Below are positions 27,435 to 60,475 of a stretch of 64,000 nt of DNA, in pieces. The translations under genes were made by a program, and so were the position numbers. Origin of the DNA: Planctomycetota bacterium (GTDB lineage Bacteria; Planctomycetota; Brocadiia; Brocadiales; Bathyanammoxibiaceae). The stretch lies in NCBI GenBank assembly GCA_016209685.1, contig JACQVQ010000006.1, positions 3,184 to 67,183 on the forward strand, written 5' to 3'. Below the pieces are notes generated by a model. It searched no databases. It worked only from the letters and a program-made list of their open reading frames with translations, and was not told where the DNA came from. How positions within the stretch are numbered: position 1 is the first letter of the stretch; each line of letters starts with the position of its first letter.

Positions 27435-28919
27435 ATGGGCCTTTTCTCCTCAGAGTATGAGCGGCTAGTAAGATTGGTTTTAACGCCCGCTGTCTTTGAA
27501 CAGGAAGGGGTCAGCCGGCAGATTACGGAGGAGGTGGTGCGCTGTCTGTGGTACGGCAGGCACTTCCTTCAAGGGAGGCTTCATACTGAGGATGGTTCCC
27601 GTCTGGAGGTCCTCTCCCCAGGCCGGTGGAACAAGGGGGGCGGGCCAGACCACGCAAATGCGGAGATACTGCTGGAGGGCAGGGGGCACCTGAAGGGGGA
27701 CGTAGAGGTCCACCTACTATCCTCCGATTGGCGACGGCACGGGCACGACAAGCAAGAGGGTTACACCAGGGTATGCCTACATGTAGTCTTCTGGAATGAT
27801 GAGGGCGGGGGCTTTGTCAAAGACCTCCACGGTAGGGATATACCCCAGCTAGCACTCTCCAGACACATTAACCTCCCGGTGGAAGAACTGCCGGGGCCAT
27901 GCCAGGAATTACTCCAGCAACGGGCCAGGTACGAACACTGGCTCGGCCATCTACTTGAGCAGGCGGGGGACCAGCGGATAATTGCCAGGGCACAAAGGAT
28001 GGAGGGGCGTCTTGAGGGGCAGTCTTTTGAAGAGATACTGTACCGTAGCCTTATGGAGGCCATGGGGTACAAGAGCAATGTGGTAGGCTTCTCCCTCCTT
28101 GCAAGCCGTGTCAGCCTGGGAGACCTCCGCCGTTTGGTGCCGGTGGATGCTAATGAAAGGGAGACCGCCTCCTGGATACAGGCCCTCCTCCTCGGGGCGT
28201 CAGGGATACTACAAAAGTGGTCTAATAAGGATTTCCAGGATAAGGAGAGCAAAAGGTATTTTGCCTCTGTTTGTGGGCTGTGGAAGGGGCTTCAAGGGAA
28301 GTGGTCAGGAGAGATGCTCTCCCCCGAGGTATGGCGATGGGAAGGTACCCGTCCATTTAATTCCCCTCCCAGGAGGCTGGCTGCCATGAGCGCCCTATTG
28401 GCAAGGGGCCTTGAAAAGGGCCTGTTCAGGGAATTTTTATCCCCACTTGAGGAGGCAAAAGGCGGAGATAAAGGGGACGTGCGAGGGGTAATAAAGAAAC
28501 TGGAGACCATCTTCCTTAGCCTGGAAGACCCCTTTTGGTCTTATCATCTGGTCCTCGGCGGGAATAGGCGTAAGACCCCGGCCAGACTGGTGGGGCGTGA
28601 GCGGATGGCCATCCTGTTGATAAATGTCATTATTCCACTCCTGCTCCTCTACGCCAGGAGGCATGAGGATAAGGAGACGGAAGGGGTACTCCACGAGATA
28701 TATAGCCAATACCCCAGGCTACAGCCCGACAGCATCGTAAGGTTTATGACCGAGCGGATAGTCCCCGAAAAGTCCGCAAAGATTGTTAACTCTGCCCGCC
28801 GACAACAGGGCCTCCACCAGCTATACAGAGACTTCTGCCAGAGGGGGGACGTGAGGTGTGATAGGTGCGGGTTTTATTTGGCACTTGGGGATAGGGGGCG
28901 GCGGCCGTTTTCGTTGTAG
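27435..28919 (+). CDS. DUF2851 family protein
   Basis: LEVLSPGRWNKGGGPDHANAEILLEG...GDVEVHLLSSDWRRHGHDKQEGYTRVCLHVVFW matches the DUF2851 N-terminal signature as recalled. The C-terminal motif CDRCGF is present. Confidence 0.7.
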   Translation: MGLFSSEYERLVRLVLTPAVFEQEGVSRQITEEVVRCLWYGRHFLQGRLHTEDGSRLEVLSPGRWNKGGGPDHANAEILLEGRGHLKGDVEVHLLSSDWRRHGHDKQEGYTRVCLHVVFWNDEGGGFVKDLHGRDIPQLALSRHINLPVEELPGPCQELLQQRARYEHWLGHLLEQAGDQRIIARAQRMEGRLEGQSFEEILYRSLMEAMGYKSNVVGFSLLASRVSLGDLRRLVPVDANERETASWIQALLLGASGILQKWSNKDFQDKESKRYFASVCGLWKGLQGKWSGEMLSPEVWRWEGTRPFNSPPRRLAAMSALLARGLEKGLFREFLSPLEEAKGGDKGDVRGVIKKLETIFLSLEDPFWSYHLVLGGNRRKTPARLVGRERMAILLINVIIPLLLLYARRHEDKETEGVLHEIYSQYPRLQPDSIVRFMTERIVPEKSAKIVNSARRQQGLHQLYRDFCQRGDVRCDRCGFYLALGDRGRRPFSL

Positions 28920-28944
28920 GGGCAGGTTTAAAACCTGCCCCTAC
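28916..28944. repeat. GTAGGGGC...GCCCCTAC palindrome (AGGTTTAAAACCT core); probable bidirectional terminator
   Basis: GTAGGGGCAGGTTTAAAACCTGCCCCTAC. It contains the TAG stop of DUF2851 (28917..28919) and the complement of the rseP stop (28941..28943). Confidence 0.85.
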
Positions 28945-30770
28945 TGATACATCGCCAGCAACCGCATGACATCGTTCCTCGTAGCGAAGAGGAGGAGGGC
29001 GAGGAGGAGGGCCATGCCTATGTATTGAGCGAAGGCCATGGTACGCTCGCTGAGGGGGGAGCCCTTTATCTTCTCTATGCCCAGGAAGAGGAGATGTCCG
29101 CCGTCCAGCATGGGGATAGGTAGGGCGTTCAGGATAGCCAACTGGAGGCTGAGGATGCCAATAAAGTAGAGCAGCTTCCCCATACCCAGCTTGGCCGATT
29201 CATAGGTGGCCTGGGCAATCATGATGATGCCCCCCACCGTCTCACTGGAGACCTGCCGGGTGAGGAGGGCCTTCATGGAGAGGTATATCCTTTGGGTCAT
29301 GACGATGGCCTTGTGGGTGCCCGCCTGACAGGCCCCAATGAAACCATATTGTTTCTCTACGGATTTCTCTTTTAGTCTTATCCCGAGCCTCCCCATGGCC
29401 CCCTCTGTGTCCTTCCTGGGGCGGAACCTGGCGGTGAAGGTCTCCCCGCCTTTGTCACCGGCGGTCCCACTGCCCCTGCGCCACTGGACTTCCATTTCTT
29501 TCCCTTCGCAGGTGGCGATAATCCTCAGGAGGTCTTCCCACCTCTTCAGGCCTTCTCCGCGGAGGGAGAGTAGTTCGTCCCCGGGCCTTATGCCAAGCTC
29601 CTGGGCTGGGAAGCCCTCTACTACGTGGTCAACCCTTAGCCCCATGGCAGGGACGACCCCCTCAAGGAGGTTCCTGGCATCCCCAGGCACGTCCAGAGAG
29701 AGGACTTCCTTCCCCCGTTTCAGGGTCAGGTTGGGGGTCTTTCCTCCTGGGGTGGGCAGTTCGCTTGTGGCAGATTTCAGGGCAGTCCAGCCAGAGACCT
29801 CTTTTCCGTTGACCTTAAGTAGCACGTCTCCTTTTTTAAGCCCTACCTTTGCCGCCAGGCTTTCTTGCTGGAGGGACTGTATTTTTGTTGAGGCGCAGGA
29901 GACCCCGAGCATCCACCGGGGCGTGCTGAGGGGGGTTACCTTGACCTCTTGTTTTTCCCCCTGTCTGAGCACGGTTAAAGTCAACTCTTTGCCAGGGTTG
30001 TTCGCCTCTATTTCCCTGATTTTTTCCCCTGCCTCTACGCCCTCCCCATTGATGGCGATAATCTCGTCGCCGGCCTTCAGACCCGCCTCCTTAGAGGGAG
30101 AGCCATCGGGGTACTGGAGTATGTGGCCTATCTCTCTGCTGAGGGCCGGGCTTATGCCTATGCGTTGCATCCCCTGGGCCTCATCATATCTAGGTGAGAC
30201 CGTAAAGCCCAGGAGCTGGTTATCCCGTTCCACAAGGAGGGAGATTTTCGCTGCAGGACTGCCCAGGGCTATGGAGGTGAAGATGTCCTCAAAGTCTGGG
30301 TTACGCTTCCCGTTAAGCCGGACGATTTTATCTCCGGGTTTTAGGCCCGTCTCCCAGGCCGGCCAGCCAGTAGAGACCTCCCCTATCTCTGAGGTGATGA
30401 AGGGGACGCCTATCTGGAAGGCAATGACGAACGCAATGAAGGCCAGCAGGGCGTTAAGCCCCACCCCGGCTAACAGTACCAGCGCCCTCTGATGGGCAGG
30501 TTTCGCCATAAAATCCCCGGGTGCCAGAGGGGCCTCCTTTTCCGGGTGTTCGCCGGCCAGTTTTACGTAGCCTCCGAGCGGGATGGCGGAGAGCCTGTAG
30601 TCGGTCTCCCCCCATACCCTACTCCAGAGGGCTGGCCCGAAGCCCATGGAGAAGACGTGTACCTTTACCCCAATCCACTTGGCGGCCAGGAAGTGGCCCA
30701 GCTCGTGGACGAAGATGAGGGTGCCTATGCCCAGGATTACCAGCAGTATATTTGTAGACGTCTCAGTCAT
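28941..30770 (-). CDS. rseP: RIP metalloprotease RseP (site-2 protease, M50) with four PDZ-like modules
   Basis: HELGHFLAAK near the N-terminus and NALPIPMLDGGHLLF near the C-terminus. Four G-[LI]-[KR]-x-GD motifs are present: GLKPGDKIV, GLKAGDEII, GLKKGDVLL, GIRPGDELL. Confidence 0.85.
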   Translation of the reverse strand: MTETSTNILLVILGIGTLIFVHELGHFLAAKWIGVKVHVFSMGFGPALWSRVWGETDYRLSAIPLGGYVKLAGEHPEKEAPLAPGDFMAKPAHQRALVLLAGVGLNALLAFIAFVIAFQIGVPFITSEIGEVSTGWPAWETGLKPGDKIVRLNGKRNPDFEDIFTSIALGSPAAKISLLVERDNQLLGFTVSPRYDEAQGMQRIGISPALSREIGHILQYPDGSPSKEAGLKAGDEIIAINGEGVEAGEKIREIEANNPGKELTLTVLRQGEKQEVKVTPLSTPRWMLGVSCASTKIQSLQQESLAAKVGLKKGDVLLKVNGKEVSGWTALKSATSELPTPGGKTPNLTLKRGKEVLSLDVPGDARNLLEGVVPAMGLRVDHVVEGFPAQELGIRPGDELLSLRGEGLKRWEDLLRIIATCEGKEMEVQWRRGSGTAGDKGGETFTARFRPRKDTEGAMGRLGIRLKEKSVEKQYGFIGACQAGTHKAIVMTQRIYLSMKALLTRQVSSETVGGIIMIAQATYESAKLGMGKLLYFIGILSLQLAILNALPIPMLDGGHLLFLGIEKIKGSPLSERTMAFAQYIGMALLLALLLFATRNDVMRLLAMYQ

Positions 30771-33381: not shown

Positions 33382-34833
33382 ATGAGACTGACTCGCTTTC
33401 CCTGTCTACTGTTTACTATCTACTGTCTACTAGTTTTGGGTCTGGAGACCCAAAACGACCCGGGTGCCATTGCCCAGGAGTGGGCGCCCAGCTGGCAATT
33501 GCCCCAGCGGGACCGGCCGGCCAATATCATTGAGGCCCCGATTACGGGTCGTGGGGAGATGCCAGAGGGCCGGTTCTTCCCCCCGATTATATGTGGGGCA
33601 TGTCACACGGATATCTTTCAGCAATGGAAAGGCTCCACACATGCCTATGCATGGTATGACCCGCTCTTTAGGGCCCTTTACCAAAAGGGTCTCCAGGAGG
33701 CCCAGGGAGAACAGCAAAGGGTCGTCATGGACACCTGCGTCCGCTGTCACTCCCCTGTGGGTTTCACCACCGGGGAATGGAAGGCCACGCCTTCCACGCC
33801 AGGCAGTGAGGCCAGTAAGGAGAATATCTTCTGTGATTTCTGCCACTCAGTAAAGGCTACTACGGGCATAGGCAATGCCCCTTTTATTGTAGACCCCGGG
33901 GATGCCGTAAAGATGGACTTCGGCACCAAACGGGGTCCCTTTAAGGACTGCCCCACGACCGCCCACAAGACGGAGTATTCTGAACTCCACACCCGTTCGG
34001 AATTCTGCGGCTCCTGCCATGACGTATCTCATGCCGGGAGCAGGTTGGCAGTAGAACAGACCTATACGGAGTGGCGTCTGGGACCCTACAATACTGGTAA
34101 TCCTGCCACCACGACACATTGTCAGGACTGCCACATGAGACAGAGACCAGGCGTGCCCTCCACAGGTTCAACGGAGAGGCCAGATAATCCGGGCTTTGCC
34201 GCAAAGAAGGAAGTAGGGGGCATAGAGAGGCCCCACATCTGGACCCATTATTTCGTGGGCGGTACCAGCCTTATCCTAGGTCCCATCCTCCAGGAGCCCG
34301 AGAGGCAAAAGATGGCCGAGGACAGGCTAAAAAATGCCGCCAGGGTGGAGCTGATAACGCCCACCGCTATAAAACCCGGGGAGTTGCTCAGGTTCAGGGT
34401 AATGGTAGAAAACGTGGGTGCGGGACACTACATCCCCACGGGGCTTACGGAGGTGCGTCAGATGTGGCTGGACGTGGCCGTGGCGGACGCCGATGGTAAG
34501 GAGGTCTATCGCTCTGGTACGGTGGATGAGAGGGGACACCTGGAGGAGGATGCCGTCGTATATCACACCATCTTTGGTAACGAGAAGGGACAGCCCACGT
34601 ATAAGATATGGGAGGCCACCCACATCATCTCTGATTATCGGGTCCCCCCAAAGGGGCAGAGGGTGGAGAAGTATGCCTTCCTGCTCCCCCCAGACATCAA
34701 ACTACCACTGAAGATAAAGGCCGTGCTCCGCTACAGGAGTGCCCCGCAGTGGCTGGCGGGGGAACTCCTGGGGGATGGAGCCCCCACTATACCCATTGTG
34801 GATATGGCAGAGGCGACAGCCGCAGTGCAGTAG
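33382..34833 (+). CDS. Secreted pentaheme c-type cytochrome
   Basis: It has a signal peptide and five CxxCH motifs: CGACH, CVRCH, CDFCH, CGSCH and CQDCH. The ~200-aa C-terminal domain has no heme motifs. Confidence 0.8.
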   Translation: MRLTRFPCLLFTIYCLLVLGLETQNDPGAIAQEWAPSWQLPQRDRPANIIEAPITGRGEMPEGRFFPPIICGACHTDIFQQWKGSTHAYAWYDPLFRALYQKGLQEAQGEQQRVVMDTCVRCHSPVGFTTGEWKATPSTPGSEASKENIFCDFCHSVKATTGIGNAPFIVDPGDAVKMDFGTKRGPFKDCPTTAHKTEYSELHTRSEFCGSCHDVSHAGSRLAVEQTYTEWRLGPYNTGNPATTTHCQDCHMRQRPGVPSTGSTERPDNPGFAAKKEVGGIERPHIWTHYFVGGTSLILGPILQEPERQKMAEDRLKNAARVELITPTAIKPGELLRFRVMVENVGAGHYIPTGLTEVRQMWLDVAVADADGKEVYRSGTVDERGHLEEDAVVYHTIFGNEKGQPTYKIWEATHIISDYRVPPKGQRVEKYAFLLPPDIKLPLKIKAVLRYRSAPQWLAGELLGDGAPTIPIVDMAEATAAVQ

Positions 34834-34857
34834 TGGCGACCGGCCAGTCGCCCCTAC
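34830..34857. repeat. GTAGKGGC...GCCCCTAC palindrome (GACCGGCCRGTC core)
   Basis: GTAGTGGCGACCGGCCAGTCGCCCCTAC. It contains the cytochrome TAG stop (34831..34833). Confidence 0.8.
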
Positions 34858-37551: not shown

Positions 37552-37660
37552 GGGGGCAGGCACCGATTGCGGAATGCATTCTTAGTGCGGAATGTAGAAT
37601 GCGGAATGCGGAATTAAATTCTTCAAATTCCACACTCCGAATTCACCATTTGCCCCGTAG
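37552..37660. repeat. Tandem-unit hairpin (GCGGAAT units)
   Basis: ...GATTGCGGAATGCATTCTTAGTGCGGAATGTAGAATGCGGAATGCGGAATTAAATTCTTCAAATTCCACACTCCGAATTCACC... It uses the same unit type as 49841..49914. Confidence 0.75.
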
Positions 37661-37764: not shown

Positions 37765-39096
37765 ATGGTTACCGAGGTAGGTATTGATATCCTGGAACAG
37801 GAAAGCGTACCCAGAGAGGCCGTGAGGCAGCTAAGGAAGAAGGTGTGCTCTTCCAACGAAGAAAGGGAGGCCATGGAGAACGAGGCCGCAAGCCTTGCCC
37901 TGGCCATCAAAAGGGGGAAAGACCCGACAAAGGTGAAAGAGGACTGTCTCAAGTTAGGTATAGTCCTCTGGACTATGGGTCGGGCAAAGGAGGCCATAGA
38001 GGCCCTGGAAGAGGTGAAGACCCGCAAGGTCGCTTGTTACTACCTCGGGAAGTGTTATGAAGAACGGGGGGACTACGAAAAGGCCCTGGAGTTGCTTGAG
38101 AAGGCCAGGAAGGAAGAGGCAGAAGAGATTGATTTAGAGTTAGAGGTCGTGGGCGTGCAGAGGAAGGCAGGCCAGACCAAGGAGGCGCTGAAAAAGATAG
38201 AACAGCTGGCGAAGGCCCACGGTAACGAGGCAGAAGTCCATTATCAGTGGGGGTATTGCACGGAAGACATGGGGGAATATCCGGAGGCCATGGCCCACTA
38301 CGAGAAAGCCCTGGAGATAGACCCTGAACATGCAGGGGCCCTTTTCCGCCTGGGTTACAATTATGACCTGGAAGGGGAGGACGAAAAGGCCGTAGGGTAC
38401 TATGAGAAATGCAAGGAACTCTCTCCCACTTATACGAACGTCCTTATAAATTTAGGAACCCTTTACGAAGACAGGGGAGAGTACGAGAAGGCGGTCTCTT
38501 GCTTTGAGGAGGTACTGAGGGCCGACCCCAATCACCCCAGGGCGGGCCTGTATCTTAAAGATGCCAAGTCCTCCCTCTACATGTACTACGACGAGGAAAA
38601 GTTGAGGGCCCAGAGTAAAGAGAGCGAGGTGTTAGGTATACCCATATCAGATTTTGAGCTCTCCGTACGGAGCAAGAATTGCCTGGAAAGGATGGGCATA
38701 AAGACGTTGAGAGACCTTACCACGGTAACGGAAAGCCAGCTCCTTTCCTTTAAGAATTTTGGAGAGACCTCTCTGACTGAGATAAAGGAAGTGCTGACCC
38801 AAAAAGGCCTCAGGATAGGCCAGGCCCTGGAAGAACAGAAGAGGTTGCATCCCACCCCCAGGTCTGAACAGGAGGCGGAACTCCTGAATAGCCCTGTTTC
38901 CATCCTGGAACTATCCGCCCGCACCGCAAAGGCCCTGGAAAAAATAGGTATCCATACCGTAGAAGAGCTTATCTCTAAGACGGAAGAAGAACTGCTAGGC
39001 CATAAGGGTATCAGCGGGTCGCACGCAGAGGAGATTACCGAGAAACTCACCAGGTGGGAACTATCCTTAAGACAGGCAAAAAAGGAATCAGAATAA
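37765..39096 (+). CDS. TPR-repeat protein with two C-terminal RNA polymerase alpha-subunit CTD-like (HhH) domains
   Basis: TPR-like repeats are present (YYLGKCYEERGDYEKALELLEKA, HYEKALEIDPEH, FEEVLRADPNH). FELSVRSKNCLERMGIKTLRDLTTVTESQLLSFKNFGETSLTEIKEVLTQKGL closely parallels E. coli RpoA-CTD ([23 protein letters not shown]...LGKKSLTEIKDVLASRGL). A weaker second copy is ILELSARTAKALEKIGIHTVEELI. Confidence 0.7.
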   Translation: MVTEVGIDILEQESVPREAVRQLRKKVCSSNEEREAMENEAASLALAIKRGKDPTKVKEDCLKLGIVLWTMGRAKEAIEALEEVKTRKVACYYLGKCYEERGDYEKALELLEKARKEEAEEIDLELEVVGVQRKAGQTKEALKKIEQLAKAHGNEAEVHYQWGYCTEDMGEYPEAMAHYEKALEIDPEHAGALFRLGYNYDLEGEDEKAVGYYEKCKELSPTYTNVLINLGTLYEDRGEYEKAVSCFEEVLRADPNHPRAGLYLKDAKSSLYMYYDEEKLRAQSKESEVLGIPISDFELSVRSKNCLERMGIKTLRDLTTVTESQLLSFKNFGETSLTEIKEVLTQKGLRIGQALEEQKRLHPTPRSEQEAELLNSPVSILELSARTAKALEKIGIHTVEELISKTEEELLGHKGISGSHAEEITEKLTRWELSLRQAKKESE

Positions 39097-39108: not shown

Positions 39109-39136
39109 GTAGGGGCGACCGGCCGGTCGCCCCTAC
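39109..39136. repeat. GTAGGGGC...GCCCCTAC palindrome (GACCGGCCGGTC core)
   Basis: GTAGGGGCGACCGGCCGGTCGCCCCTAC, a perfect 28-nt palindrome. Confidence 0.85.
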
Positions 39137-40326: not shown

Positions 40327-41530
40327 GAAACAGGCCCCGAATCCACCCCTTCGCTCCGCTCAAGGGCAGGCCCTGAACCAGAACGGTTCAGGGCAGGCTC
40401 AGGCGGGGCAGGGAGAGGCCAAATCCCCCCTACCCCCCTTTAATAAAGGGGGGGCAAGGGAGGATTTAAACCGGCCTTCTCCGCCTCAGGCGGAGAAGGG
40501 GAAGGGACAAGGCCTCTTAAAGGGCAAGGAAGAGGTGGAAGAGGCCCTGAACCTGCGCCCCAGGAGGCTTGCTGAATATATTGGCCAGGGCCAGGTGGTG
40601 GAGTCCCTGGGTATTGCCATTGAGGCCGCAAAGAAACGGGGGGACGCCGTTGACCACGTCCTCCTTTACGGCCCCCCGGGTCTTGGGAAGACCACCCTTG
40701 CCCATATAATAGCCAAAGAGATGGACGTGGGGATAGTCACGACCTCAGGCCCCGCCCTGGAAAAGGGGGGAGACCTTATCGGCATCCTCACCCACCTCAA
40801 AAAGGGTGACGTGTTTTTCATAGACGAAATCCACAGGTTGCCCAGGACCGTGGAAGAGTACCTGTACTCCGCCGTGGAGGACTTTGCCATCAGCATAGTC
40901 TTTGACAAGGGGAGCCACGCCAGGAGCTACCGCAGTAGACTTGAAAAATTTACCCTCGTAGGGGCCACCACCCGTGCAGGGCTCATCTCCTCGCCCCTGC
41001 GGGAGAGGTTTGGCATACAGAGGGCCCTAGACTTTTACACGATGGAAGAACTATGCCAGGTGGTCAGGCGCTCGGCCGCCCTCCTCCAGGTGCCTGCAGA
41101 TGCAGAAGGGGTGGTGGAGATTGCCAGACGGAGCAGGGGTACCCCGAGGATAGCCAACCGCATCCTGAGGAGGGTAAGGGACTATGCACAGGTAAGACAC
41201 GCTGGGGTGATAACCAGACCCGTGACCCAGGAGGCCCTGGAACTGGAAGGGATTGACGGGGAGGGCCTTACCACGCTGGACAAGAAATTCCTGGAGACCG
41301 TGATAATCCATTACAAGGGGGGCCCGGTCGGGCTGGAGGCCATTGCGGCCGTCCTGCAGGAAGAGACGGATACCCTGGTGGACATGGTAGAACCCTTTTT
41401 GCTCAAGGCAGGCTTCATTCTCCGTACCCCCAAGGGCCGTAAGGCCACAGACAAGGCCCACAGCTATCTCGGCCTCCCTAATGCCTCTGCGGAGGAGAGG
41501 CAACTCTCTTTTTTACCAGGACAAAGATGA
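40292..41530 (+). CDS. ruvB: Holliday junction DNA helicase RuvB (maximal ORF; the conserved part begins near 40535)
   Basis: [12 protein letters not shown], Walker [46 protein letters not shown]. The first ~80 codons are low-complexity and built from palindromic repeats. An in-frame GTG at 40535 is an alternative start. Confidence 0.9.
40477..40497. repeat. Extended TCCGCC-N3-GGCGGA palindrome
   Basis: TTCTCCGCCTCAGGCGGAGAA, a perfect 21-nt palindrome inside the ruvB 5' extension. Confidence 0.8.
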
Positions 41531-43361: not shown

Positions 43362-43417
43362 CAGCATTGGGGGCAGAGCCCCAATGCTATAGCCCTGGTG
43401 CTCTGCCACCAGGGCTG
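43362..43417. repeat. 56-nt double-hairpin repeat, copy 2 (inverted relative to 13600..13655)
   Basis: CAGCATTGGGGGCAGAGCCCCAATGCTATAGCCCTGGTGCTCTGCCACCAGGGCTG. Confidence 0.8.
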
Positions 43418-43494: not shown

Positions 43495-44643
43495 TTGAGA
43501 TTCAAGATTCTAGGTGCCGATAGGGAGACGAGGGCCCGTTGCGGGGAGATGGAGACCCCTCACGGGAAGGTCAAGACGCCCCTCTTCATGCCGGTGGCTA
43601 CCCAGGCCACGGTGAAGACCTTGACGCCAAAACAGCTCCGTGAGATAGGGACAGAAGCTATCATATGCAACGCCTACCATCTGGCCCTCAGACCAGGGGA
43701 GGAGGTGGTAAAGGGGATGGGTGGTCTCCACCACTTCATGGGATGGTCCAGGACTATAGTGACCGATAGTGGCGGCTTTCAGATATTCTCCCGCAACGGC
43801 CTGAGCCGGGTCTCGGACGAGGGCGTAGAGTTTTGTTCCCCTTTCACGGGAGAGAGGGTCTTCCTCAGTCCTGAGAGGGTAATGGAGATACAATCTTCCC
43901 TGGGTAGTGATATTGCCATGCCCCTTGACCACTGTGTAACCCATCCCTGTCCCCGGGAGGAGGCCCGCCAGGCCATGTTAAGGACCCATAGGTGGACCAG
44001 GCGGTGCGTAGAGGCAGGTCTCAAACCTGCCCCTGCACAGGCCCTCTTTGGGATTGTCCAGGGGGGTGTGTACAAAGACCTCCGCCTGGAGAGCGCCTGG
44101 GGCCTGGTGGAACTGGGGCTGGAAGGATATGCCGTAGGTGGACTCAGCGTGGGGGAGGGCAGGGAACTCATGTTAGAGGTGCTGGAATACACTGCCGAGG
44201 CCCTTCCGTGGGAGAGGCCAAGATACCTCATGGGGGTAGGCACCCCGGAAGACATCCTGGACGCCGTGGCACTTGGGGTAGATATGTTTGATTGTGTCCT
44301 GCCCACACGGAATGGCAGGAACGGTACCGTCTTTACTAGAAAAGGCAGACTAAAGATCCTCAACAGCCGTCACAAGGAAGACCCGAGACCCCTGGAGGAA
44401 GGGTGTCAGTGTTACACCTGCAGTAACTTCTCAAGGGCCTATCTCAGGCACCTGTTTCTTTCAGGAGAGATACTGGCCATGACGCTCCTTTCCCTGCATA
44501 ATCTCCATTTCTTTCAGCACTTGATGAGGGACGTCCAGGAGGCTATCCTTACTGGGAACTTTGGTCAGTTCAGAAAAACCTTCCCCACCTCTCAGGAGGA
44601 GGAAAGGGAGGGGAGAAAGGAGATGGCCTTATGGACTTCCTGA
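43495..44643 (+). CDS. tgt: Queuine tRNA-ribosyltransferase
   Basis: TTG start. ARCGEMETPHGKVKTPLFMPVAT, TDSGGFQ, LFGIVQGG, YLMGVGTPEDI, and the zinc motif CQCYTC...H. Confidence 0.94.
   Translation: MRFKILGADRETRARCGEMETPHGKVKTPLFMPVATQATVKTLTPKQLREIGTEAIICNAYHLALRPGEEVVKGMGGLHHFMGWSRTIVTDSGGFQIFSRNGLSRVSDEGVEFCSPFTGERVFLSPERVMEIQSSLGSDIAMPLDHCVTHPCPREEARQAMLRTHRWTRRCVEAGLKPAPAQALFGIVQGGVYKDLRLESAWGLVELGLEGYAVGGLSVGEGRELMLEVLEYTAEALPWERPRYLMGVGTPEDILDAVALGVDMFDCVLPTRNGRNGTVFTRKGRLKILNSRHKEDPRPLEEGCQCYTCSNFSRAYLRHLFLSGEILAMTLLSLHNLHFFQHLMRDVQEAILTGNFGQFRKTFPTSQEEEREGRKEMALWTS
44008..44038. repeat. GTAGRGGC...GCCCCTGCAC palindrome copy inside the tgt coding sequence
   Basis: GTAGAGGCAGGTCTCAAACCTGCCCCTGCAC, translated in frame as VEAGLKPAPA. 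Confidence 0.7.
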
Positions 44644-44720
44644 TGCGTCCGCCTGAGGTGGATACACCGCACTGGCTGGTGGATTTGCCGATAGATTCAC
44701 TCAGTTCACTGCAAGTCTTT

Positions 44721-45071
44721 TTGGCAAACTTGCCATGTATAGGACAGGCGGCACAGCCCCCGCCCGTATTCTGGACGACCCTGCTGCCCATCTTCATGAT
44801 GGGTTTTGTCCTCTATTTCTTCATCCTCAGGCCCCAGAGGCAGAAGGAGCGGCACAGGTTAGACCTGCTGGCCGGTCTAAAGAAAAACGACCGGGTAATC
44901 ACCGGGGGTGGACTCCACGGCGTGGTGGTCTCGGTAAAGGAGAAGGAGGTCATCCTCCAGATAGACGAGACTAAAGACGTCAAGGTAAAGGTGGAGAAGG
45001 ATGCTATAATCTCCGTGGAACATAGGGAAAAACATACGGAATCTAAAGAGAAGCATAAGGAGGAGGGCTAA
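44721..45071 (+). CDS. yajC: Preprotein translocase subunit YajC
   Basis: LLPIFMMGFVLYFFILRPQRQKE...LKKNDRVITGGGLHGVVVSV is the YajC signature. The maximal ORF begins at 44631, but its first 30 codons cover a palindromic repeat, so I chose the TTG at 44721. The start is uncertain. Confidence 0.8.
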   Translation: MANLPCIGQAAQPPPVFWTTLLPIFMMGFVLYFFILRPQRQKERHRLDLLAGLKKNDRVITGGGLHGVVVSVKEKEVILQIDETKDVKVKVEKDAIISVEHREKHTESKEKHKEEG

Positions 45072-49840: not shown

Positions 49841-49914
49841 GTTCCGAATGCGGAATGCGGAGTGCGGAGTGCGGAATTTAACTCCGCATTCCGAAATCCG
49901 AAATCCGAATTCAC
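49841..49914. repeat. Tandem-unit hairpin (GCGGAAT/GCGGAGT units)
   Basis: GTTCCGAATGCGGAATGCGGAGTGCGGAGTGCGGAATTTAACTCCGCATTCCGAAATCCGAAATCCGAATTCAC. Confidence 0.8.
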
Positions 49915-49927
49915 CCTTGTCCGCCTG

Positions 49928-51076
49928 ATGCGGATTACTGCTTACTGCCCGCCCAAAATATGGCGGATTTTCAACCTGCTGGCCCTTTTTCTCTGTGGCC
50001 TGTATAGTGCGGAGGGGGTACAGGGGGCGCAATCCGTAGAGAACCCATACCCCCTCTTCAAGCACGATGCCCAGCATACGGGCAGGAGCACCTTTCTAGG
50101 GGCCCAGAAGGCCAACGTTAAATGGAGTTACCCCACAGAAGACCACATTATATCTTCCCCAACCGTGGGGGGGGATGGTACCGTGTACGTGGGTGGTATG
50201 GACGGGAATCTCTACGCCATAAGGCCGGACGGCCATACCAAATGGTTCTACCCTGCGCAGAGCGCCATCTTTTCCTCCCCTGCCGTTGCCCAGGACGGCA
50301 CCGTTTACTTTGGCTGCCGTGATAAGGTCCTCTTTGCCGTTGGGCCGGACATGAAGGAGAAATGGAAATTCAGGATGGGCGGAGAAATCCTGTCCTCCCC
50401 AACCGTGGGCCAGGATGGCACCGTTTACGTTGGGAACTGGGATGGCAAGCTCTATGCCATTAACCAGGAGGGGGCGCTTAAATGGACGTACCAGACGGGG
50501 GACAGTATCGTAGCCTCCTCCCCTGCAGTAGCCCACGATGGCACTATCTATGTAGGTTCCAGGGACAGGCAACTCCATGCAATTGACCCGGCCTCAGGAA
50601 AAAAGAGGTGGAGCTTCCAGGCAGGGGACAAGGTGGATACCGCCCCTTGTGTTGGGCCTGATGGGACGGTCTACTTCGGCGCCAACGATGGCATCCTGTA
50701 CGCCCTCTCTCCCCAGGGAGAGCCGAAGTGGAAGTTTGAAACGGGTTCCTGGATATACTCTTCCCCTTCCCTGGGAGCTGATGGGACGGTCTACTTTGGT
50801 GCCAAGGATGGCAAGGTCTATGCGGTAAGCCCCCAGGGGCAGAAGAAATGGGCCTTCCAGACAGGGGACAGCGTCAGTTCCTCCCCGACCCTGGGTTCGG
50901 ACGGTACCGTTTATGTCGGTTCCTGGGACGGAAAGTTTTACGCCATCGGCCCGGACGGCCAGCTGAAATGGAGCTACGATGCAGGGGCCTCCATAGCCAG
51001 CTCCCCGGCCATAGACGCCGAAGGCACGGTATACGTGGGCTGTGACAGCGGCAAGCTCTACGCCTTCGCAAGGTAG
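49928..51076 (+). CDS. Secreted PQQ-like (BamB-type) beta-propeller repeat protein
   Basis: The ATG at 49928 lies after the hairpin. The signal is IFNLLALFLCGLYSAEG. About eight repeats of the pattern SSP(A/T)VGxDGTVYVGxxDGKLYAIxxxGxxKW are present. Confidence 0.8.
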   Translation: MRITAYCPPKIWRIFNLLALFLCGLYSAEGVQGAQSVENPYPLFKHDAQHTGRSTFLGAQKANVKWSYPTEDHIISSPTVGGDGTVYVGGMDGNLYAIRPDGHTKWFYPAQSAIFSSPAVAQDGTVYFGCRDKVLFAVGPDMKEKWKFRMGGEILSSPTVGQDGTVYVGNWDGKLYAINQEGALKWTYQTGDSIVASSPAVAHDGTIYVGSRDRQLHAIDPASGKKRWSFQAGDKVDTAPCVGPDGTVYFGANDGILYALSPQGEPKWKFETGSWIYSSPSLGADGTVYFGAKDGKVYAVSPQGQKKWAFQTGDSVSSSPTLGSDGTVYVGSWDGKFYAIGPDGQLKWSYDAGASIASSPAIDAEGTVYVGCDSGKLYAFAR

Positions 51077-52434: not shown

Positions 52435-52911
52435 TTATATTTCTCCTACCTTTTGTAGTGCCTTTTGATAAAGTTCCCTCCTTAAGCGAAAGTCATGTCG
52501 CAAAAACTCGTCCAAGACTTCTTTCAAGTTTTCTATCTCCCCAATCTCCTTTGCATGTATAAGTACACCCAATGTGCCGATAATCCTAACGCCCTCTTTG
52601 ATTGCTGCCTTTCTGGCGGCAAGGTCGTCTATAAGCAGAGGTAAACGTCTTTCCCTGGCAAGAAGGATGGCCTCCTTTTCTCCATCGCCCAGGGTATGAG
52701 GTAATTTATTAATATCTTCAGGGCTCTCCAAGCTGAGAATTTCTATCCAGGGGAGTTTTCCTGTTTCGCTCATACCGGGTTTTCTAAACCCTTGGATTAA
52801 TTCTGCGTGAACTGCTGGTGGGATAGCAATTTTTTGAAATATTTTATGGAGGAGAGCTAGTTTATTTACCCTGACAAAACTAATGAGTGGCCCTGCATTG
52901 GAGACAATCAT
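52435..52911 (-). CDS. DUF3368 (PIN-like) putative toxin
   Basis: MIVSNAGPLISFVRVNKLALLHKIFQKIAIPPAVHAEL fits the DUF3368 N-terminus as recalled. It overlaps the upstream small gene by 4 nt and lies in a lower-G+C patch. Confidence 0.6.
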   Translation of the reverse strand: MIVSNAGPLISFVRVNKLALLHKIFQKIAIPPAVHAELIQGFRKPGMSETGKLPWIEILSLESPEDINKLPHTLGDGEKEAILLARERRLPLLIDDLAARKAAIKEGVRIIGTLGVLIHAKEIGEIENLKEVLDEFLRHDFRLRRELYQKALQKVGEI

Positions 52912-53192
52912 TTATAATGCCCTTTCTTCCTGAAGCTCTTAAGGGTGGAGAGTTCCTGTTCAAGTTCTTCGGAAGAAAGGTCAAAAGTAGGGACATTATA
53001 TTTAGCCATGAGATCAAAAAGGGAGTTTCGGTTTATACCCAAAAACTCCGAGGCCTTACCCTGGGATATTTTATGCTTACGCAATAGTTCTAAAACTGCT
53101 GACTGTTTTACTTTTCGTACAGCTTCCTTGTCTGTTTTGCCAAGGTGTCTAAGTATCTCTTCAGGGAATTCTATCTCTAGCTTTTTGTTCAT
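52908..53192 (-). CDS. UPF0175-family putative antitoxin
   Basis: 94 aa. AVLELLRKHKISQGKASEFLGINRNSLFDLMAKYNVP fits the UPF0175 HTH-like pattern. It is the usual partner of DUF3368. Confidence 0.6.
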   Translation of the reverse strand: MNKKLEIEFPEEILRHLGKTDKEAVRKVKQSAVLELLRKHKISQGKASEFLGINRNSLFDLMAKYNVPTFDLSSEELEQELSTLKSFRKKGHYK

Positions 53193-54330: not shown

Positions 54331-54816
54331 TTATAAATGCTTTGGGCCTGCAAGATATAGATAAATTATACTAGATATTATTAGAAATACACCTGCTATA
54401 ATTAACAAGGCCGACCACCATACAAGCATTGCCCTATAACCTACAATCCTACTATTTTTCCCTAGTACTTCTTTATAAGTTGCGATTAAACGACTTTTTA
54501 CTTCTAACGAATCCTGTTTCAATTCTCCTACAAGCACATTAAAGTCTATCCTTTCAAAAGATTCTGTCCGAATAACAAAGAGGGATATCGTTATAGAAGA
54601 AAATAGACATAATGCACTAATCACTAAGATAGGTAGCGCCAAGCAGGGTAACAAATCTCCAAAGTCGTGTATAAGAAAAGAAACAGCCGCAAGCAGGATG
54701 CCCGATATGGTTACTGAGGTGTTTGCTTTATTTAGAACTGAATCATACCTGTTTTCCTCTGCCTCTAATTCTCTTTGCATTACATCCGGGATAGTATTTA
54801 CTGTTTCAGGATTCAC
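54331..54816 (-). CDS. Orphan low-G+C membrane protein (3-4 predicted TM helices)
   Basis: The GTG start overlaps the lpxD stop (GTGA). Hydrophobic segments are TISGILLAAVSFLI, LALPILVISALCLFSSITISLFVI and AMLVWWSALLIIAGVFLIISSIIYL. I recognised no family. Confidence 0.5.
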   Translation of the reverse strand: MNPETVNTIPDVMQRELEAEENRYDSVLNKANTSVTISGILLAAVSFLIHDFGDLLPCLALPILVISALCLFSSITISLFVIRTESFERIDFNVLVGELKQDSLEVKSRLIATYKEVLGKNSRIVGYRAMLVWWSALLIIAGVFLIISSIIYLYLAGPKHL

Positions 54817-55955
54817 TCTAGGTCCAACCTTTTCTCTAGCTCCGCTACCTTCTTCTTTAGAGACCTCAGGAGTTCCATCATCGCTGGCAGTCTGTGCATG
54901 GCCACCTGGGTGCGGCGCATCTTCTTAATGGGTTCGGCAGGGTAGCCCAGATAGGTCCCTCCGCTTGGGAGGTCGTTGGTCACCCCAGACCTTGCCCCCA
55001 CCTTCACGTCGTCCCCAACGGTGACGTGCCCCACCACCCCTACCCCTCCTGCCAGTATGACACGACTACCTATCTTGGCGCTTCCGGCGATACCCACCTG
55101 GCCGATGAGCAGGGTGTTCTCTCCAATCTCCACGTTGTGGGCTATCTGCACCTGGCTCCCTATCTTGGTACCCCTGCCAATCCTTGTAGCTCCAAGGGCC
55201 CCGCGCTGTATCGTAGTATTCGCCCCTATCTCCACCTCGTCTTCCAGTATAGTGTTTCCGACCTGGTGGATAGAGAAGTAGCCCTCCTCTTCCGGGGCAA
55301 AGCCGAAGCCACTGCTGCCTATAACCGTGTTGGAATGTATCCGTACCCGCTTCCCTATCACAGTACCGGGGTAGATGACCACGTTGGGGTATAGTATGGT
55401 ATCCTCCCCTATCTGACAGTCCTCCCCGACGTAAACGTTGGGCATGATGACTGCCCTGTCCCCAAGCCGTGTACGGTCGCCCACGAAGACCCTTGGATAT
55501 ATGCTCACCTCCTGTCCCAGCCTGGCGGTGGGGCAGATGGTGGCGGTAGGGTGGATACCTTTGGGATGGACTTCTTCCGGCTTAAAGAGGTCTACCGCCC
55601 TGGCGAAGGCCAGGTAGGGGTTTTCGGTAACCAGGAGGGCGGGCTTCGGCCCTTGGCCCCCGCTCTGCTGACCGCTGAGAGCGGGAGACACAATCACTGC
55701 TGAGGCCCTGGTGGTGGCTAGTTTCTTTGAGTATTTTTCGTTGGCAATAAAGGTAATGTCTCCCGCCTGGGCCTCGTCAATGGTCATAACCCCACGGATA
55801 GATATGCCTTTATTTCCGACCACCTTTCCCCCGAGCCTGCGGGCAAGTTCACCGAGGGTCAGGCTTTTTTGGTCCTGCCTCGTCGTAGGGGCACGTTGCA
55901 ACGTGCCCCTACCAGGCGGACTGAGCTTCTTAGACGGTTTGGTATTCCTTGACAT
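54813..55955 (-). CDS. lpxD: UDP-3-O-acylglucosamine N-acyltransferase
   Basis: LTLGELARRLGGKVVGN, followed by a long left-handed beta-helix hexapeptide-repeat region and a C-terminal helix. The ~30-codon N-terminal extension contains a palindromic repeat. Confidence 0.9.
   Translation of the reverse strand: MSRNTKPSKKLSPPGRGTLQRAPTTRQDQKSLTLGELARRLGGKVVGNKGISIRGVMTIDEAQAGDITFIANEKYSKKLATTRASAVIVSPALSGQQSGGQGPKPALLVTENPYLAFARAVDLFKPEEVHPKGIHPTATICPTARLGQEVSIYPRVFVGDRTRLGDRAVIMPNVYVGEDCQIGEDTILYPNVVIYPGTVIGKRVRIHSNTVIGSSGFGFAPEEEGYFSIHQVGNTILEDEVEIGANTTIQRGALGATRIGRGTKIGSQVQIAHNVEIGENTLLIGQVGIAGSAKIGSRVILAGGVGVVGHVTVGDDVKVGARSGVTNDLPSGGTYLGYPAEPIKKMRRTQVAMHRLPAMMELLRSLKKKVAELEKRLDLE
55885..55912. 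repeat. GTAGGGGC...GCCCCTAC palindrome (ACGTTGCAACGT core) inside the lpxD 5' extension
   Basis: GTAGGGGCACGTTGCAACGTGCCCCTAC, a perfect 28-nt palindrome. Confidence 0.85.
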
Positions 55956-56279
55956 AAGAGCTAGGAAGGGATAGACTTTTCACCGTATCATAAATAGGGG
56001 CAATCCACCTCAGCGGATCGCCCGTATAGGTTAGATGATAGATTTACCCCCTGGCCTTGTCAATAGGGTATTATAGATAGATTGCTTTGCTGTCCCTTCT
56101 CCGCCTCAGGTGGACTCAGGGCTACGGCTTACGATGACACGCTCTACTATGTGACAACCCATGTCCTTCCATATCCTCTTAATAAGCCCCGGGGTTCATG
56201 ATTTCACCGCCTTTGACCTATGGGCGAAACCTCTAGCTCAGGCGGATACCTCTACGGTGACTGTGGAGAGTTAAAGTCT

Positions 56280-57617
56280 ATGCGTGTCCTTGCAGGCTTT
56301 TTGGCCTTTTCTCTTTTCATAATAGTAGGGGCAGGTTTGAAACCTGCCCTGCACCAGAACGGTGCAGGGCCTGCCCCTGCAACGGCCGCCGATGCCGGGC
56401 CAAAGCCTGTCTTGAATACGGTTAACAGGGAGTTTTGGACCTGGTATGTGCAGAAGATGCCCCCGGAGGATATAAAGGTGAGGGCCACTTGCCGGGGGAT
56501 TGGGCAGAACCTTTACGTGTTTGTAAACGATGTGGACTGGCTGAGACCCGTAACCCAGGCCGATGTGGACAGGATTATAGAGACCTTTGACCGTTCTACC
56601 CCCACCAACCCCCAAAAGGGGATATATCAGATTGCCACGGAGGCCTTCGGTCAGCCTCCCGATAAGGACGGCGACCCAAAGATATATATCCTTATCTCCG
56701 AGCTGGGGGAATTCAGGGGTCACCACTTTGACGGTTTCTTCCGTTACCTGGACCAGACCAATGAAAAGGGTAGTAACCAACTGGACATGCTTTGTGTAGA
56801 TGCCCATGACCCAGCCAGTGAATACCACCTGGGCGTCCTGGCCCATGAATTCCAGCACCTCATCCACTGGCGTTACGACCCGGAAGAAGAAGGGTGGGTA
56901 AACGAGGCCCTCTCGGAGTTGTGCATGATACTCTGTGGTTACTATACGGACAAACGCCACGTGGAGACCTTCCTTAAGCATACGGACAGGCCGCTGGTTG
57001 CCCCCGGTCATGGAGCCACCAGTTACGGGGCCTGCCTCCTCTGGGCCACCTACATCTACGACAGGCTGGGTCTGGAATTTATTGGCAGGTGGGTAAGGGA
57101 ACCAGGACAGGGAATAAAGGGTTTTGAAGACGCCCTTAAACACACGGCCGTAGGGGCAGGTTTTAAACCTGCCCCTACCTTTAATTCCCTATTTGCCGAC
57201 TGGATGGTGGCCCTTTACATTAATGACCCGGGGGTACAAAATGGATTATATGCCTATAAGTCCCTGTCTCTGCCCTTTGGTCCTTTTTGTGAGGACGTTA
57301 CCTCTTATCCGTCAGAAAGGGAGGGCGAGGTAAGCGGCTATGGGATTGACTATATCAGGTTTTCTTTACCCGCCTCAGGCGGACTTAGCATAACGGCGAA
57401 AGGTGATTCTCCAGGATTTTTGATAGAGGTAATAGAGCCCAATAAGGAGAACCCTTCTCTTACCAGGGTCAGTGAACATCAGGGCAAGGAGGCCAATATC
57501 CTGGTAGATAACCACGGCAGCCTCCACGGGGAAAAGGAGGTAGTCGTGGCCGTTACCGTCCTGGAGGCCACAGAAAAACCAGTAAGATATTATTTAAAGG
57601 CCACCCTGGAACAGTAG
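56280..57617 (+). CDS. Secreted or anchored HExxH zinc-metallopeptidase-like protein (family uncertain, possibly M30-like)
   Basis: The ATG at 56280 gives the signal/anchor MRVLAGFLAFSLFIIVG. The motif is GVLAHEFQHLIHW with a downstream NEALSE. Two palindrome copies are translated in frame. Confidence 0.6.
   Translation: MRVLAGFLAFSLFIIVGAGLKPALHQNGAGPAPATAADAGPKPVLNTVNREFWTWYVQKMPPEDIKVRATCRGIGQNLYVFVNDVDWLRPVTQADVDRIIETFDRSTPTNPQKGIYQIATEAFGQPPDKDGDPKIYILISELGEFRGHHFDGFFRYLDQTNEKGSNQLDMLCVDAHDPASEYHLGVLAHEFQHLIHWRYDPEEEGWVNEALSELCMILCGYYTDKRHVETFLKHTDRPLVAPGHGATSYGACLLWATYIYDRLGLEFIGRWVREPGQGIKGFEDALKHTAVGAGFKPAPTFNSLFADWMVALYINDPGVQNGLYAYKSLSLPFGPFCEDVTSYPSEREGEVSGYGIDYIRFSLPASGGLSITAKGDSPGFLIEVIEPNKENPSLTRVSEHQGKEANILVDNHGSLHGEKEVVVAVTVLEATEKPVRYYLKATLEQ
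56325..56354. repeat. GTAGGGGC... palindrome copy inside a CDS
   Basis: GTAGGGGCAGGTTTGAAACCTGCCCTGCAC, translated as VGAGLKPALH. Confidence 0.75.
57150..57178. repeat. GTAGGGGC...GCCCCTAC palindrome copy inside a CDS
   Basis: GTAGGGGCAGGTTTTAAACCTGCCCCTAC, translated as VGAGFKPAPT. Confidence 0.85.
57370..57382. repeat. CCGCC-N3-GGCGG palindrome inside a CDS
   Basis: CCGCCTCAGGCGG, translated within LPASGGLS. Confidence 0.7.
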
Positions 57618-57642
57618 GGGCAGGTTTTAAACCTGCCCCTAC
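57614..57642. repeat. GTAGGGGC...GCCCCTAC palindrome
   Basis: GTAGGGGCAGGTTTTAAACCTGCCCCTAC. It contains the TAG stop of the peptidase-like gene (57615..57617). Confidence 0.85.
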
Positions 57643-57710
57643 AACTGCCAATGTGGCAGGGTAAGGGCCCTCCTTAGGTGAGCTTAACGGCTTTTTCATC
57701 AAGGGCTGAG

Positions 57711-57738
57711 GCAGGGTAGGTTTTAAACCTGCCCCTAC
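57711..57738. repeat. Degenerate GTAGGGGC-type palindrome
   Basis: GCAGGGTAGGTTTTAAACCTGCCCCTAC. Confidence 0.7.
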
Positions 57739-58791: not shown

Positions 58792-60429
58792 ATGGCGGCA
58801 AAGAAGATACTTTACAGACAGGAGGCCTCTGAGGTTATCCGCAGAGGCATTAGTAAGGCTGCCCAGGCAGTAAAGGTTACACTTGGGCCCAAAGGCAGAA
58901 ACGTAATTATAGCCAAGAGTTTTGGTTCTCCTACCGTAACCAAAGATGGGGTGACCGTTGCCAAAGAGGTTGAACTGGAAGACCCGTATGAGGACCTGGG
59001 GGCCAGGATGGTCAAGGAGGTAGCCTCTAAGACCAGCGACGTAGCCGGGGACGGCACCACCACCGCCACTGTCATTGCAGAGGCCATCTTCCTGGAGGGG
59101 CTGAAGAACGTTGCCGCAGGTGCTAATGCCGCGGCCATCCGCAGGGGTATAGAAAAGGCCACTGAAAAGGTAGTGGCAGAACTTAACAGGATGAGCACCC
59201 CTGTGGCTGGCAAAAAGGAGATTATGCAGGTAGCTACCATCGCCTCCAATGGAGATACGGAGATAGGCCAGCACATCGCAAATGCCATGGAGAGGGTGGG
59301 TAAGGAGGGGGTCATTACTGTAGAGGAAGGACGGTCCATGGAGACTATGGTGGATTGGGTGGAAGGGATGCAATTTGATAAAGGGTATCTCTCCCCCTAC
59401 TTCATTACCTCCCCCGAGACCATGGAGACGGTGCTGGAAAGGCCGCTAATACTTATTCATGAAAAGAAACTCTCCCAGGCCAAGGAGCTTATTCCTTTAC
59501 TGGAAAAGGTGGTAAGGGCAGGACGCCCCTTACTGGTCATTGCCGAGGATGTGGAAGGAGAGGCCCTGGCCACCTTTGTGGTGAACAAACTCCGGGGAAT
59601 CCTGCCATGCTGCGCCGTCAAGGCCCCAGGTTTTGGGGACAGAAGGAAGGCCATGCTGGGGGACATCGCCGTGGTAACTAAGGCTAACGCCATCTTTGAA
59701 GACCTGGGCATCCAGCTAGCCAAGTTAGACCTCCCGGACCTGGGGAGTGCGAAGAAGGTGGTTATAGATAAGGAAACTACTACCATCGTAGAAGGGGCAG
59801 GAGAAAGGAAGGCCGTCCAGGGCCGCATAGAACAGATTAAGAATGAGCTGCAAATCACCACCTCCGACTACGACAAGGAGAAGCTCCAGGAGCGACTGGC
59901 TAAACTGGCAGGCGGCGTGGCCAGGATAAACGTAGGGGCGGCCACAGAGGCGGAGATGAAGGAGAAAAAGGCCAGGCTGGAGGACGCTATCCATGCCACC
60001 AGGGCCGCCGTGGAAGAGGGCATACTGCCCGGAGGTGGGGTTGCCCTACTCAGGGCCTCAAAGGTACTGGGTACCCTTGAACTGGTGGGGGATGAACGCA
60101 CCGGACGTGAGATATTGAGGGCCGCCCTGGAGGTACCTATCAAACAACTGGCCGAGAACGGGGGCCACGATGGCGAGGTAGTGCTCCAGAAGGTCAAGTC
60201 TCTATCAGAGGGACGTGGGAACCAGGGGTTTGACGTGGCGGAGGGACGATATACCGATATGATAGAGGCAGGCATCATTGACCCTACCAAGGTGGTAAGG
60301 AGTGCCTTACAAAACGGGGCCAGCATTGCCGCCCTCCTCCTCACTACGGATGCCCTGGTGGGGGAGATACCTGAAAAGAAGTCCGCCTCAGGCGGACCAG
60401 GCCCAGCCCACCACATGCACCCCCATTAA
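58792..60429 (+). CDS. groEL: Chaperonin GroEL
   Basis: [39 protein letters not shown]. It has an atypical C-terminal tail, [17 protein letters not shown]. Confidence 0.97.
60381..60397. repeat. TCCGCC-N3-GGCGGA palindrome inside the groEL 3' end
   Basis: GTCCGCCTCAGGCGGAC, a perfect 17-nt palindrome translated as SASGGP. Confidence 0.8.
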
Positions 60430-60448: not shown

Positions 60449-60475
60449 GTAGGGGCGGGGTAACCCCGCCCCTAC
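60449..60475. repeat. GTAGGGGC...GCCCCTAC palindrome (GGGGTAACCCC core); terminator-like after groEL
   Basis: GTAGGGGCGGGGTAACCCCGCCCCTAC, 20 nt after the groEL stop, followed by TACTTTTAT. Confidence 0.8.

Follow-up and report, generated by a model that had tools for sequence, protein, structure and literature searches.

A probable double-foot GTAG REP, decayed and read in frame, in a loop of tRNA-guanine transglycosylase from a Planctomycetota bacterium

Introduction

The REP-associated tyrosine transposases (RayT, RAYT or TnpA_REP) are linked to repetitive extragenic palindromic (REP) elements. According to Quentin et al. (2018; PMC6006769), transposases of subclass 2.4, which is group 4 of Bertels, carry the motifs NH[IFV]H, WQ and YIxNNP and occur in Cyanobacteria, Bacteroidetes and other phyla with a patchiness that suggests horizontal transfer. 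The same article describes their REPs as 'double foot' elements with a 5′ GT[AG]G and a 3′ C[TC]AC, and reports that, uniquely in this subclass, REPs are also found in frame within tnpA_REP, between HuH and Y. Here we describe a palindrome within tgt, the gene for tRNA-guanine transglycosylase (Tgt), in a 64-kb stretch of contig JACQVQ010000006.1 from a Planctomycetota bacterium (hereafter the window). The palindrome is probably an old copy of such a double-foot REP.

Di Nocera et al. (2013; PMC3733652) described GTAG-tagged REPs that are mostly located downstream of open reading frames (ORFs) and whose termini often supply a TAG stop codon, with families in Planctomycetes, Chloroflexi and Cyanobacteria. 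Some of these REPs lie wholly inside ORFs and are translated, the listed peptides including AGKPAPT, and it was proposed that intragenic copies are tolerated in loops or linkers. The authors also linked two Rickettsia palindromic elements (RPEs), RPE-4 and RPE-6, to tagged REPs and noted that R. conorii RPEs end in CGTC; no RayT association was reported for CGTC repeats. A sequence-only reading of the window had likened the tgt palindrome to RPEs. These palindromic repeats can lie in frame in essential genes, where their translation yields stretches exposed on the protein surface; RPE-1 has a length of about 100-150 bp and adds tens of residues to its host protein.

Results

The tgt palindrome and its family in the window

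The tgt gene (43495..44643, plus strand) encodes a protein of 382 amino acids that matches TGT chains in the PDB with E values of about 1e-116 and whose homologs carry PF01702. Inside this ORF, the 31-mer GTAGAGGCAGGTCTCAAACCTGCCCCTGCAC occupies positions 44008-44038 of the plus strand. It is read in frame as codons 172-181, giving VEAGLKPAPA (V172 to A181), and QALFGIVQGG follows directly. The sequence is a copy of a repeat that we call family A, a 29-nt palindrome with the consensus GTAGGGGCAGGTTTWAAACCTGCCCCTAC, and it matches the 20-nt degenerate search core GGCAGGTYTNAAACCTGCCC with zero mismatches. The 5′ foot GTAG is intact (44008-44011) and the region of the 3′ foot now reads CTGCAC. 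In L001, an independent metagenome-assembled genome (MAG) whose tgt is 95.1% identical in nucleotides (L-numbers denote DNA stretches of other genomes, P-numbers homologous proteins), the orthologous copy still has CTAC, and the 3-nt deletion that removed the foot was therefore placed in the window copy. Both the tgt copy (−17.9 kcal/mol, z = −4.8) and a canonical copy (−23.6 kcal/mol, z = −5.9) fold as RNA into stable GC-rich stem-loops of 20-40 nt.

A search of the window with GGCAGGTYTNAAACCTGCCC allowing up to 3 mismatches returned 12 strand-hits, corresponding to six loci, compared with 0.06 expected. Upon grouping of the repeats, the copies at 28916, 44008, 56325, 57150, 57614 and 57710 formed one cluster of 83-100% identity with the family-A consensus. 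The sequence-only reading had recognized the palindrome in tgt and its translation as VEAGLKPAPA, and coordinates, ORF and the six-locus family bear this out. Its equation of the tgt element with VGAGFKPAPT (57150) and VGAGLKPALH (56325) also holds, both being in frame in ORF 56220..57617. Every canonical copy in the window has the 5′ GTAG, and the 3′ CTAC is found in the copies at 28916, 57150, 57614 and 57710.

Sister elements have the same 8-nt feet, GTAGGGGC and GCCCCTAC, and other stems. The pattern GTAGGGGC-N8-30-GCCCCTAC gave six exact palindromes against 0.02 expected, among them the sisters at 39109, 55885 and 60449, and near-copies of the double-foot pattern were seen at 34830 and 13769. 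The superfamily thus comprises 11 copies in 64 kb, six of family A and five sisters. Four of the 11 lie in frame in genes (tgt, two in the metalloprotease-like ORF, the lpxD N-terminus) and five are stop-associated, either at the stop codon or not more than 20 nt downstream; one is intergenic and one falls in a doubtful small ORF. Frame 1 of the element (GTA GGG GCA GGT TTW AAA CCT GCC CCT AC = VGAG[FL]KPAPT) stays open whichever way the element is read, a consequence of its palindromic symmetry, and the frame that follows contains a TAG in both orientations. The in-frame copies share a common translation for this reason.

The element occupies an existing loop of Tgt

When 32 Tgt proteins were aligned (A1), RRC and ALFG proved to be separated by 11 amino acids in the window and by 12 in P0001. 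Repeat-free orthologs have 12 residues here when they are close relatives (P0004, P0010-P0018) and nine when they are distant. Among solved structures, the segment of Z. mobilis TGT exceeds that of the window by 3 residues, and that of T. maritima TGT falls short of it by 2. Since the loop is no longer than in repeat-free orthologs, the element took the place of native loop codons, and a simple insertion of 10 residues is ruled out. The term 'inserted' in the earlier reading is therefore right insofar as a copy of a mobile family is translated in frame, but wrong in implying a gain of about 10 residues. Its statement that the palindrome precedes LFGIVQGG in a segment variable among Tgt proteins agrees with the alignment.

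The AlphaFold model of Tgt (pLDDT, the predicted local distance difference test, 86.3) comprises a helix at 154-173, a coil at 174-182 and a strand at 183-187, so that residues 172-181 form the helix end and the coil preceding the strand. At the element the pLDDT falls to 67, compared with 95 and 91 for the flanking blocks. In TIM barrels, the C-terminal face is the catalytic one, and alpha-to-beta loops lie at the other end of the barrel. The model thus places the element in a surface alpha-to-beta loop on the barrel face that would lie opposite the active site.

At the same tgt codons L001 has GCAGAGGCAGGTTTGAAACCTGTCTCTACTGCACAG and the window GTAGAGGCAGGTCTCAAACCTGCCCCT---GCACAG. The ancestor of both copies was near GTAGAGGCAGGTTTGAAACCTGCCCCTAC, and combining the two recovers 28 of the 29 consensus bases. 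The two decayed independently of one another, the window copy having also lost 3 nt including part of its 3′ foot. Window and L001 differ at 8 of 34 columns inside the element and at 49 of 1118 outside (Fisher p = 1.5e-4), an approximately fivefold faster divergence that fits relaxed constraint. One could ask whether the Tgt loop merely resembles the repeat, given that its length is that of repeat-free orthologs. The zero-mismatch core match, where even at three mismatches only 0.06 hits are expected, argues against coincidence, and in orthologs free of the repeat the corresponding segment, although about as long, is unrelated in sequence and contains no palindrome. An assembly artefact is equally hard to reconcile with the same element in an independent MAG and with two copies that together restore nearly the whole consensus. 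We regard the chance of coincidence or artefact as negligible.

Other repeats at the same Tgt loop

The relative L002, whose Tgt is 89% identical to that of the window, has a decayed left half of the element together with adjoining REP-like palindromes, which add about 18 residues. In L005 and L007 the loop is occupied, again in frame, by another palindromic repeat, with CGGAAT-like heptamer arms around GAGTTAAATTC. This repeat is located at 1774-1905 in L005 and at 10394-10525 in L007, and occurs in the window at 31995-32055, 37575-37640 and 49860-49930. At this loop P0006 is enlarged by some 50 residues of tandem repeat; this protein (552 aa) is a Tgt-YajC fusion. No palindrome is present at the Tgt loop in L003 and L008. 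A search for the exact family-A core, covering about 100 kb of DNA syntenic with the window in eight relatives, found no canonical copy, and with mismatches allowed the only match was the decayed tgt copy of L001. In this clade the Tgt loop is a site at which repeats have landed more than once, and the finding of three different palindromic inserts in one Tgt loop among close relatives is mildly new.

Around tgt, two further features were noticed. The 3′ end of tgt overlaps a yajC ORF (44631-45071) with a long N-terminal extension (146 aa compared with 92 aa in L001). A 56-nt composite double hairpin occurs twice in inverted orientation with 98% complementarity (13600-13655 and 43362-43417), one copy being located between SpoIID and tgt.

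The family in other genomes and its link to RayT

More than 15 phyla are represented among the genomes that contain the exact 23-nt core, which is present in at least 119 stretches of DNA; about 0.03 occurrences would be expected by chance for 22 specified bases in 596 Gb of uniform composition. Among the 131 copies listed, a GTA flank is present in 93 and a TAC flank in 98 (about 71-75%). Fifteen of these 131 lie in frames that are open for at least 60 codons on either side; recognizable hosts include a LysM protein, a PMT_2 glycosyltransferase, a TPR protein and a Type ISP restriction-modification enzyme.

A tblastn search with an E. coli RayT sequence, used as a lead only, indicated RayT-like genes at several core-bearing loci. 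The RayT-like ORFs of L061 (Bacteroidales) and L100 contain the palindrome in frame directly after the HUH motif. They score 29.9 and 29 bits with Pfam Y1_Tnp (cutoff 23), and their best NCBIfam match is 'REP-associated tyrosine transposase' (REP_Tyr_transpos) with E values of 1e-18 and 1e-16, below the 80-bit equivalog cutoff. L061 has a further copy 38 nt upstream of its RayT-like gene. Likewise, a RayT-like gene of L074 (827-1141; Ca. Wunengus sp., Brocadiales) is preceded at 26 nt by a canonical family-A REP. The L074 gene breaks off directly behind HUH, at the very point that an embedded REP usually occupies. A protein search with the L061 RayT returned 2,983 homologs, several of them named 'REP element-mobilizing transposase RayT', and 99 of the best 120 encode G[AT]G[LFS][KE]PA after HUH, the remainder being near variants.

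Insertion and different stems in the metalloprotease-like gene

The bacterium is probably 'Ca. Tripitaka californicus' (Hypogeohydataceae, Brocadiia), as judged by the 100% identity of P0121. The ORF 56220..57617 encodes a metalloprotease-like protein for which Pfam gave no family match. It holds two family-A REPs on the plus strand, one at 56325..56353, translated as VGAGLKPALH at the end of a signal-peptide-like N-terminus, and a canonical one at 57150..57178, translated in frame as VGAGFKPAPT. A third, canonical copy on the plus strand (57614..57642) provides the stop codon of the ORF by its TAG (57615-57617). In the alignment of this protein (A3), VGAGFKPAPT amounts to a net gain of 6 residues relative to the outgroups, which have four residues at this place. 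The peptide at 57150 is kept in relatives down to about 66% identity, and a distant homolog (P0187) has VGAGFKPAPT at another position.

At the 57150 site the window reads GCC-GTAGGGGCAGGTTTTAAACCTGCCCCTAC-C, L128 (1289-1317) GCC-GTAGGGGCGACCCAGCGGGTCGCCCCCAC-C and L129 GCC-TATAAAGATAC-T. Feet, length and frame are identical in the window and L128, and all 13 of the 13 inner bases differ. L129 represents an empty allele; between the filled and the empty allele the net difference is 18 nt, without target duplication. A miniature inverted-repeat transposable element is ruled out by this lack of a target-site duplication and by the structure of the element, which is a single hairpin throughout. 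The stop codon of the same gene is a REP TAG both in the window (57614-57642) and in L128 (1828-1855), again with different stems. That two sites of one gene carry REPs with identical ends and different stems in another genome is likewise mildly new.

The REP at 56325 is present in P0122-P0124 and P0127 and absent from P0125 and P0126. Within a clade of 100% support, the two internal sites show all four combinations of presence and absence, which we take to mean that, at least once, an element was regained at its old site, precisely lost or recombined. The internal branches of the neighbour-joining bootstrap tree, on which the nesting of the 'empty' allele P0127 among filled ones depends, have 24-46% support.

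These observations bear on the possibility that the palindrome reached tgt, and other fixed sites, by exchange of one REP for another and not by insertion de novo. Such an exchange, with crossing at the 8-nt feet, could come about through gene conversion, through template switching or through strand transfer by RayT. The different stems within identical feet, length and frame at two orthologous sites point in this direction, as do the four presence/absence combinations and the length neutrality of the Tgt loop, and different REP classes have been reported beside orthologous RAYT genes (Nunvar et al., 2013). Yet the stem differences come from one genome pair and the combinations from a tree with low internal support, and independent insertions at a preferred target, or insertion beside a REP followed by deletion, would look alike. 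We therefore consider exchange an unlikely origin of the tgt copy. The broader notion that double-foot REPs are exchangeable cassettes at fixed addresses, ORFs included, with the stem swapped, through strand transfer by RayT or gene conversion guided by the feet, while 8-nt feet, 29-nt length and frame are kept, is more doubtful again. If it were true, it would explain the length neutrality in Tgt, the recurrent use of the loop and both stem swaps between window and L128.

A small palindrome (CTGCACCAGAACGGTGCAG / CTGNACCAGAACGGTNCAGGGC) at about 56349-56380 is nested in the 3′ end of the 56325 REP and translated. The CTGNACCAGAACGGTNCAGGGC palindrome was also seen at 40373-40404 and in the N-terminal region of gene 3001-4446 of L129, a stem position covarying (A/T vs C/G). 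The short palindromic motif (T)CCGCCTCAGGCGGA has five copies (13555, 40469, 49909, 56089, 57358), one of them inside the metalloprotease-like ORF.

Remaining copies in the window

Outside tgt, the window copies behave like ordinary REPs in that they are located at or just after stop codons and donate the TAG, and they probably form 3′ hairpins. The TAG of the element accounts for four stop codons, namely those of both convergent genes at 28916, of ORF 33382..34833 and of ORF 56220..57617. The canonical copy between the convergent genes (28916..28944) stops ORF 27435..28919 on the plus strand with TAG 28917-28919 and ORF 28941..30770 on the minus strand with CTA 28941-28943. The copy at 57710..57738 is intergenic and degenerate (86% identity).

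Three sister REPs are stop-associated. The one at 39109..39136, with the stem GCGACCGGCCGGTCGC, lies 13 nt past the stop of ORF 37765..39096. The element at 34830..34857 has the same stem type with two substitutions, and its TAG is the stop of ORF 33382..34833. The third, with the stem GCGGGGTAACCCCGC (60449..60475), is located 20 nt downstream of groEL (58792..60429). A fourth sister (55885..55912, minus strand; stem GCACGTTGCAACGTGC, GTAGGGGCACGTTGCAACGTGCCCCTAC) belongs to the stretch by which lpxD (54813..55955, minus strand) is extended at its N-terminus. The sequence-only reading had counted this copy as the same element as that of tgt, which proved incorrect, since it is a sister palindrome with a different stem, on the minus strand and read in another frame as GRGTLQRAPT. 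The contig of L001 ends (13560-13580) inside a family-C palindrome of the lpxD N-terminal extension, the same palindrome as at 55885 in the window. This is consistent with an assembly break at a multi-copy repeat and with a copy common to the window and L001.

At the orthologous intergenic site after a radical-SAM gene, relatives carry varied REPs and the window a toxin-antitoxin-like insert. The latter consists of small ORFs of 158 aa and 94 aa, both on the minus strand (52435-53192), between the radical-SAM gene and lpxI. L001 lacks this pair and has a long palindrome at the syntenic place. The window further contains 120-nt periodic coding repeats at 50153-50958 and a duplicated coding segment of roughly 540 nt at 1-819.

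Discussion

With a probability of about 0.8, the palindrome in tgt is an old, decaying double-foot GTAG REP of the RayT type that replaced an alpha-to-beta loop of Tgt and is translated as a neutral passage of the protein. A REP copy entered the Tgt loop before the lineage of the window split from those of L001 and L002. It took the place of the native loop codons without lengthening the loop, and is read through in the only frame free of stops in either direction; since then it has been altered by substitutions and by the in-frame loss of 3 nt. Its mobilization would depend on a RayT provided in trans, with hairpins of single-stranded DNA as substrate. Probably, the Gly/Ala/Pro/Lys-rich decapeptide is tolerated in a flexible loop opposite the catalytic and tRNA-binding face and has no function for Tgt, the element being a neutral passenger.

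Several points weigh against this interpretation. The window was searched by tblastn with two RayT queries, the E. coli sequence and the L061 RayT minus its REP peptide, and neither revealed a RayT-like gene in the 64 kb. The list of RayT homologs is biased, the query itself having contained the REP-encoded peptide. Insertion plus deletion and replacement in one step would both account for the present Tgt loop. Furthermore, the RNA hairpins of the window copy and of the L001 copy have both remained strong, and in L001 the exchange G5>A is matched by C25>T, which yields an A-U pair, while another change gives a G.U pair. The retained pairing could hint at some selection on structure.

Such selection might act on an mRNA structure affecting translation or decay of tgt-yajC-secDF, or on a binding site for a protein or RayT. 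The element has persisted since before the split of window, L001 and L002, and the folds of both lineages (−17.9 kcal/mol in the window and −16.7 kcal/mol in L001) are more stable than the shuffle means near −6.5 (window) and −7.2 (L001), with two L001 stem changes leaving the RNA structure in place. However, the element evolves about five times faster than the rest of tgt and one foot is lost. In L002 it is disrupted by further inserts, and since the site holds an unrelated palindrome, or no palindrome at all, in the remaining close relatives, there is no common structure across tgt orthologs. The compensatory pattern comes from two sequences only, and C>T transitions are the commonest mutations. 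A hairpin kept by selection thus appears improbable, and we favour the decaying, neutral REP.

These findings are of relevance for annotation. In Brocadiia, Chloroflexota, Cyanobacteria and other phyla, peptides of the VGAG[LF]KPAPT type are found again and again, both in proteins and in 'hypothetical' ORFs; they result from REP read-through and are not conserved protein motifs, and the annotated end of a gene is often set by a REP TAG. The Tgt loop also amounts to a natural experiment, in which one TIM-barrel alpha-to-beta loop tolerates at least three unrelated repeat-derived sequences. Same-site stem swaps, if general, would offer a testable handle on how RayT moves or remodels REPs.

A literature search for the DNA and peptide strings of the element gave no match. 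In the text consulted, Quentin et al. (2018) name neither this 29-mer nor tgt as a host, and a search of supplementary text of Di Nocera et al. (2013) did not find tgt among the hosts. The tgt element resembles RPEs in being a palindrome in frame in an essential gene that gives rise to a surface-exposed translated segment. It differs from them in its length of 29-31 nt, in the GTAG instead of CGTC tag and in adding no net residue; tag and size rule out membership of the RPEs, and the likeness to them drawn in the sequence-only reading gives way to a closer one with the double-foot GTAG REPs of subclass 2.4. Compared with the GTAG REPs of Di Nocera et al. (2013), in which the tag is unpaired at one end, the tag is mirrored here at both ends, and the tgt copy, unlike their intragenic REPs, replaces a loop and adds no residues. 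With the double-foot REPs of subclass 2.4, the family shares the 5′ GT[AG]G foot, the reverse-complementary C[TC]AC 3′ foot and a long GC-rich stem with foot G-C pairs, and the spread over many phyla is similarly patchy. The motifs NH[IFV]H, WQ and YIxxNP are present in L100, L061 and their homologs. The tgt copy departs from a full double-foot REP in having no 3′ foot, and the 64-kb window in having no cognate RayT that we could find. In its feet, its stem, its dispersal with donation of TAG and, in other genomes, its association with RayT, the family has the features of subclass 2.4 double-foot REPs. REPs lying in frame within genes are already documented (Di Nocera et al., 2013; Quentin et al., 2018), and the tgt case is an ordinary example of them.

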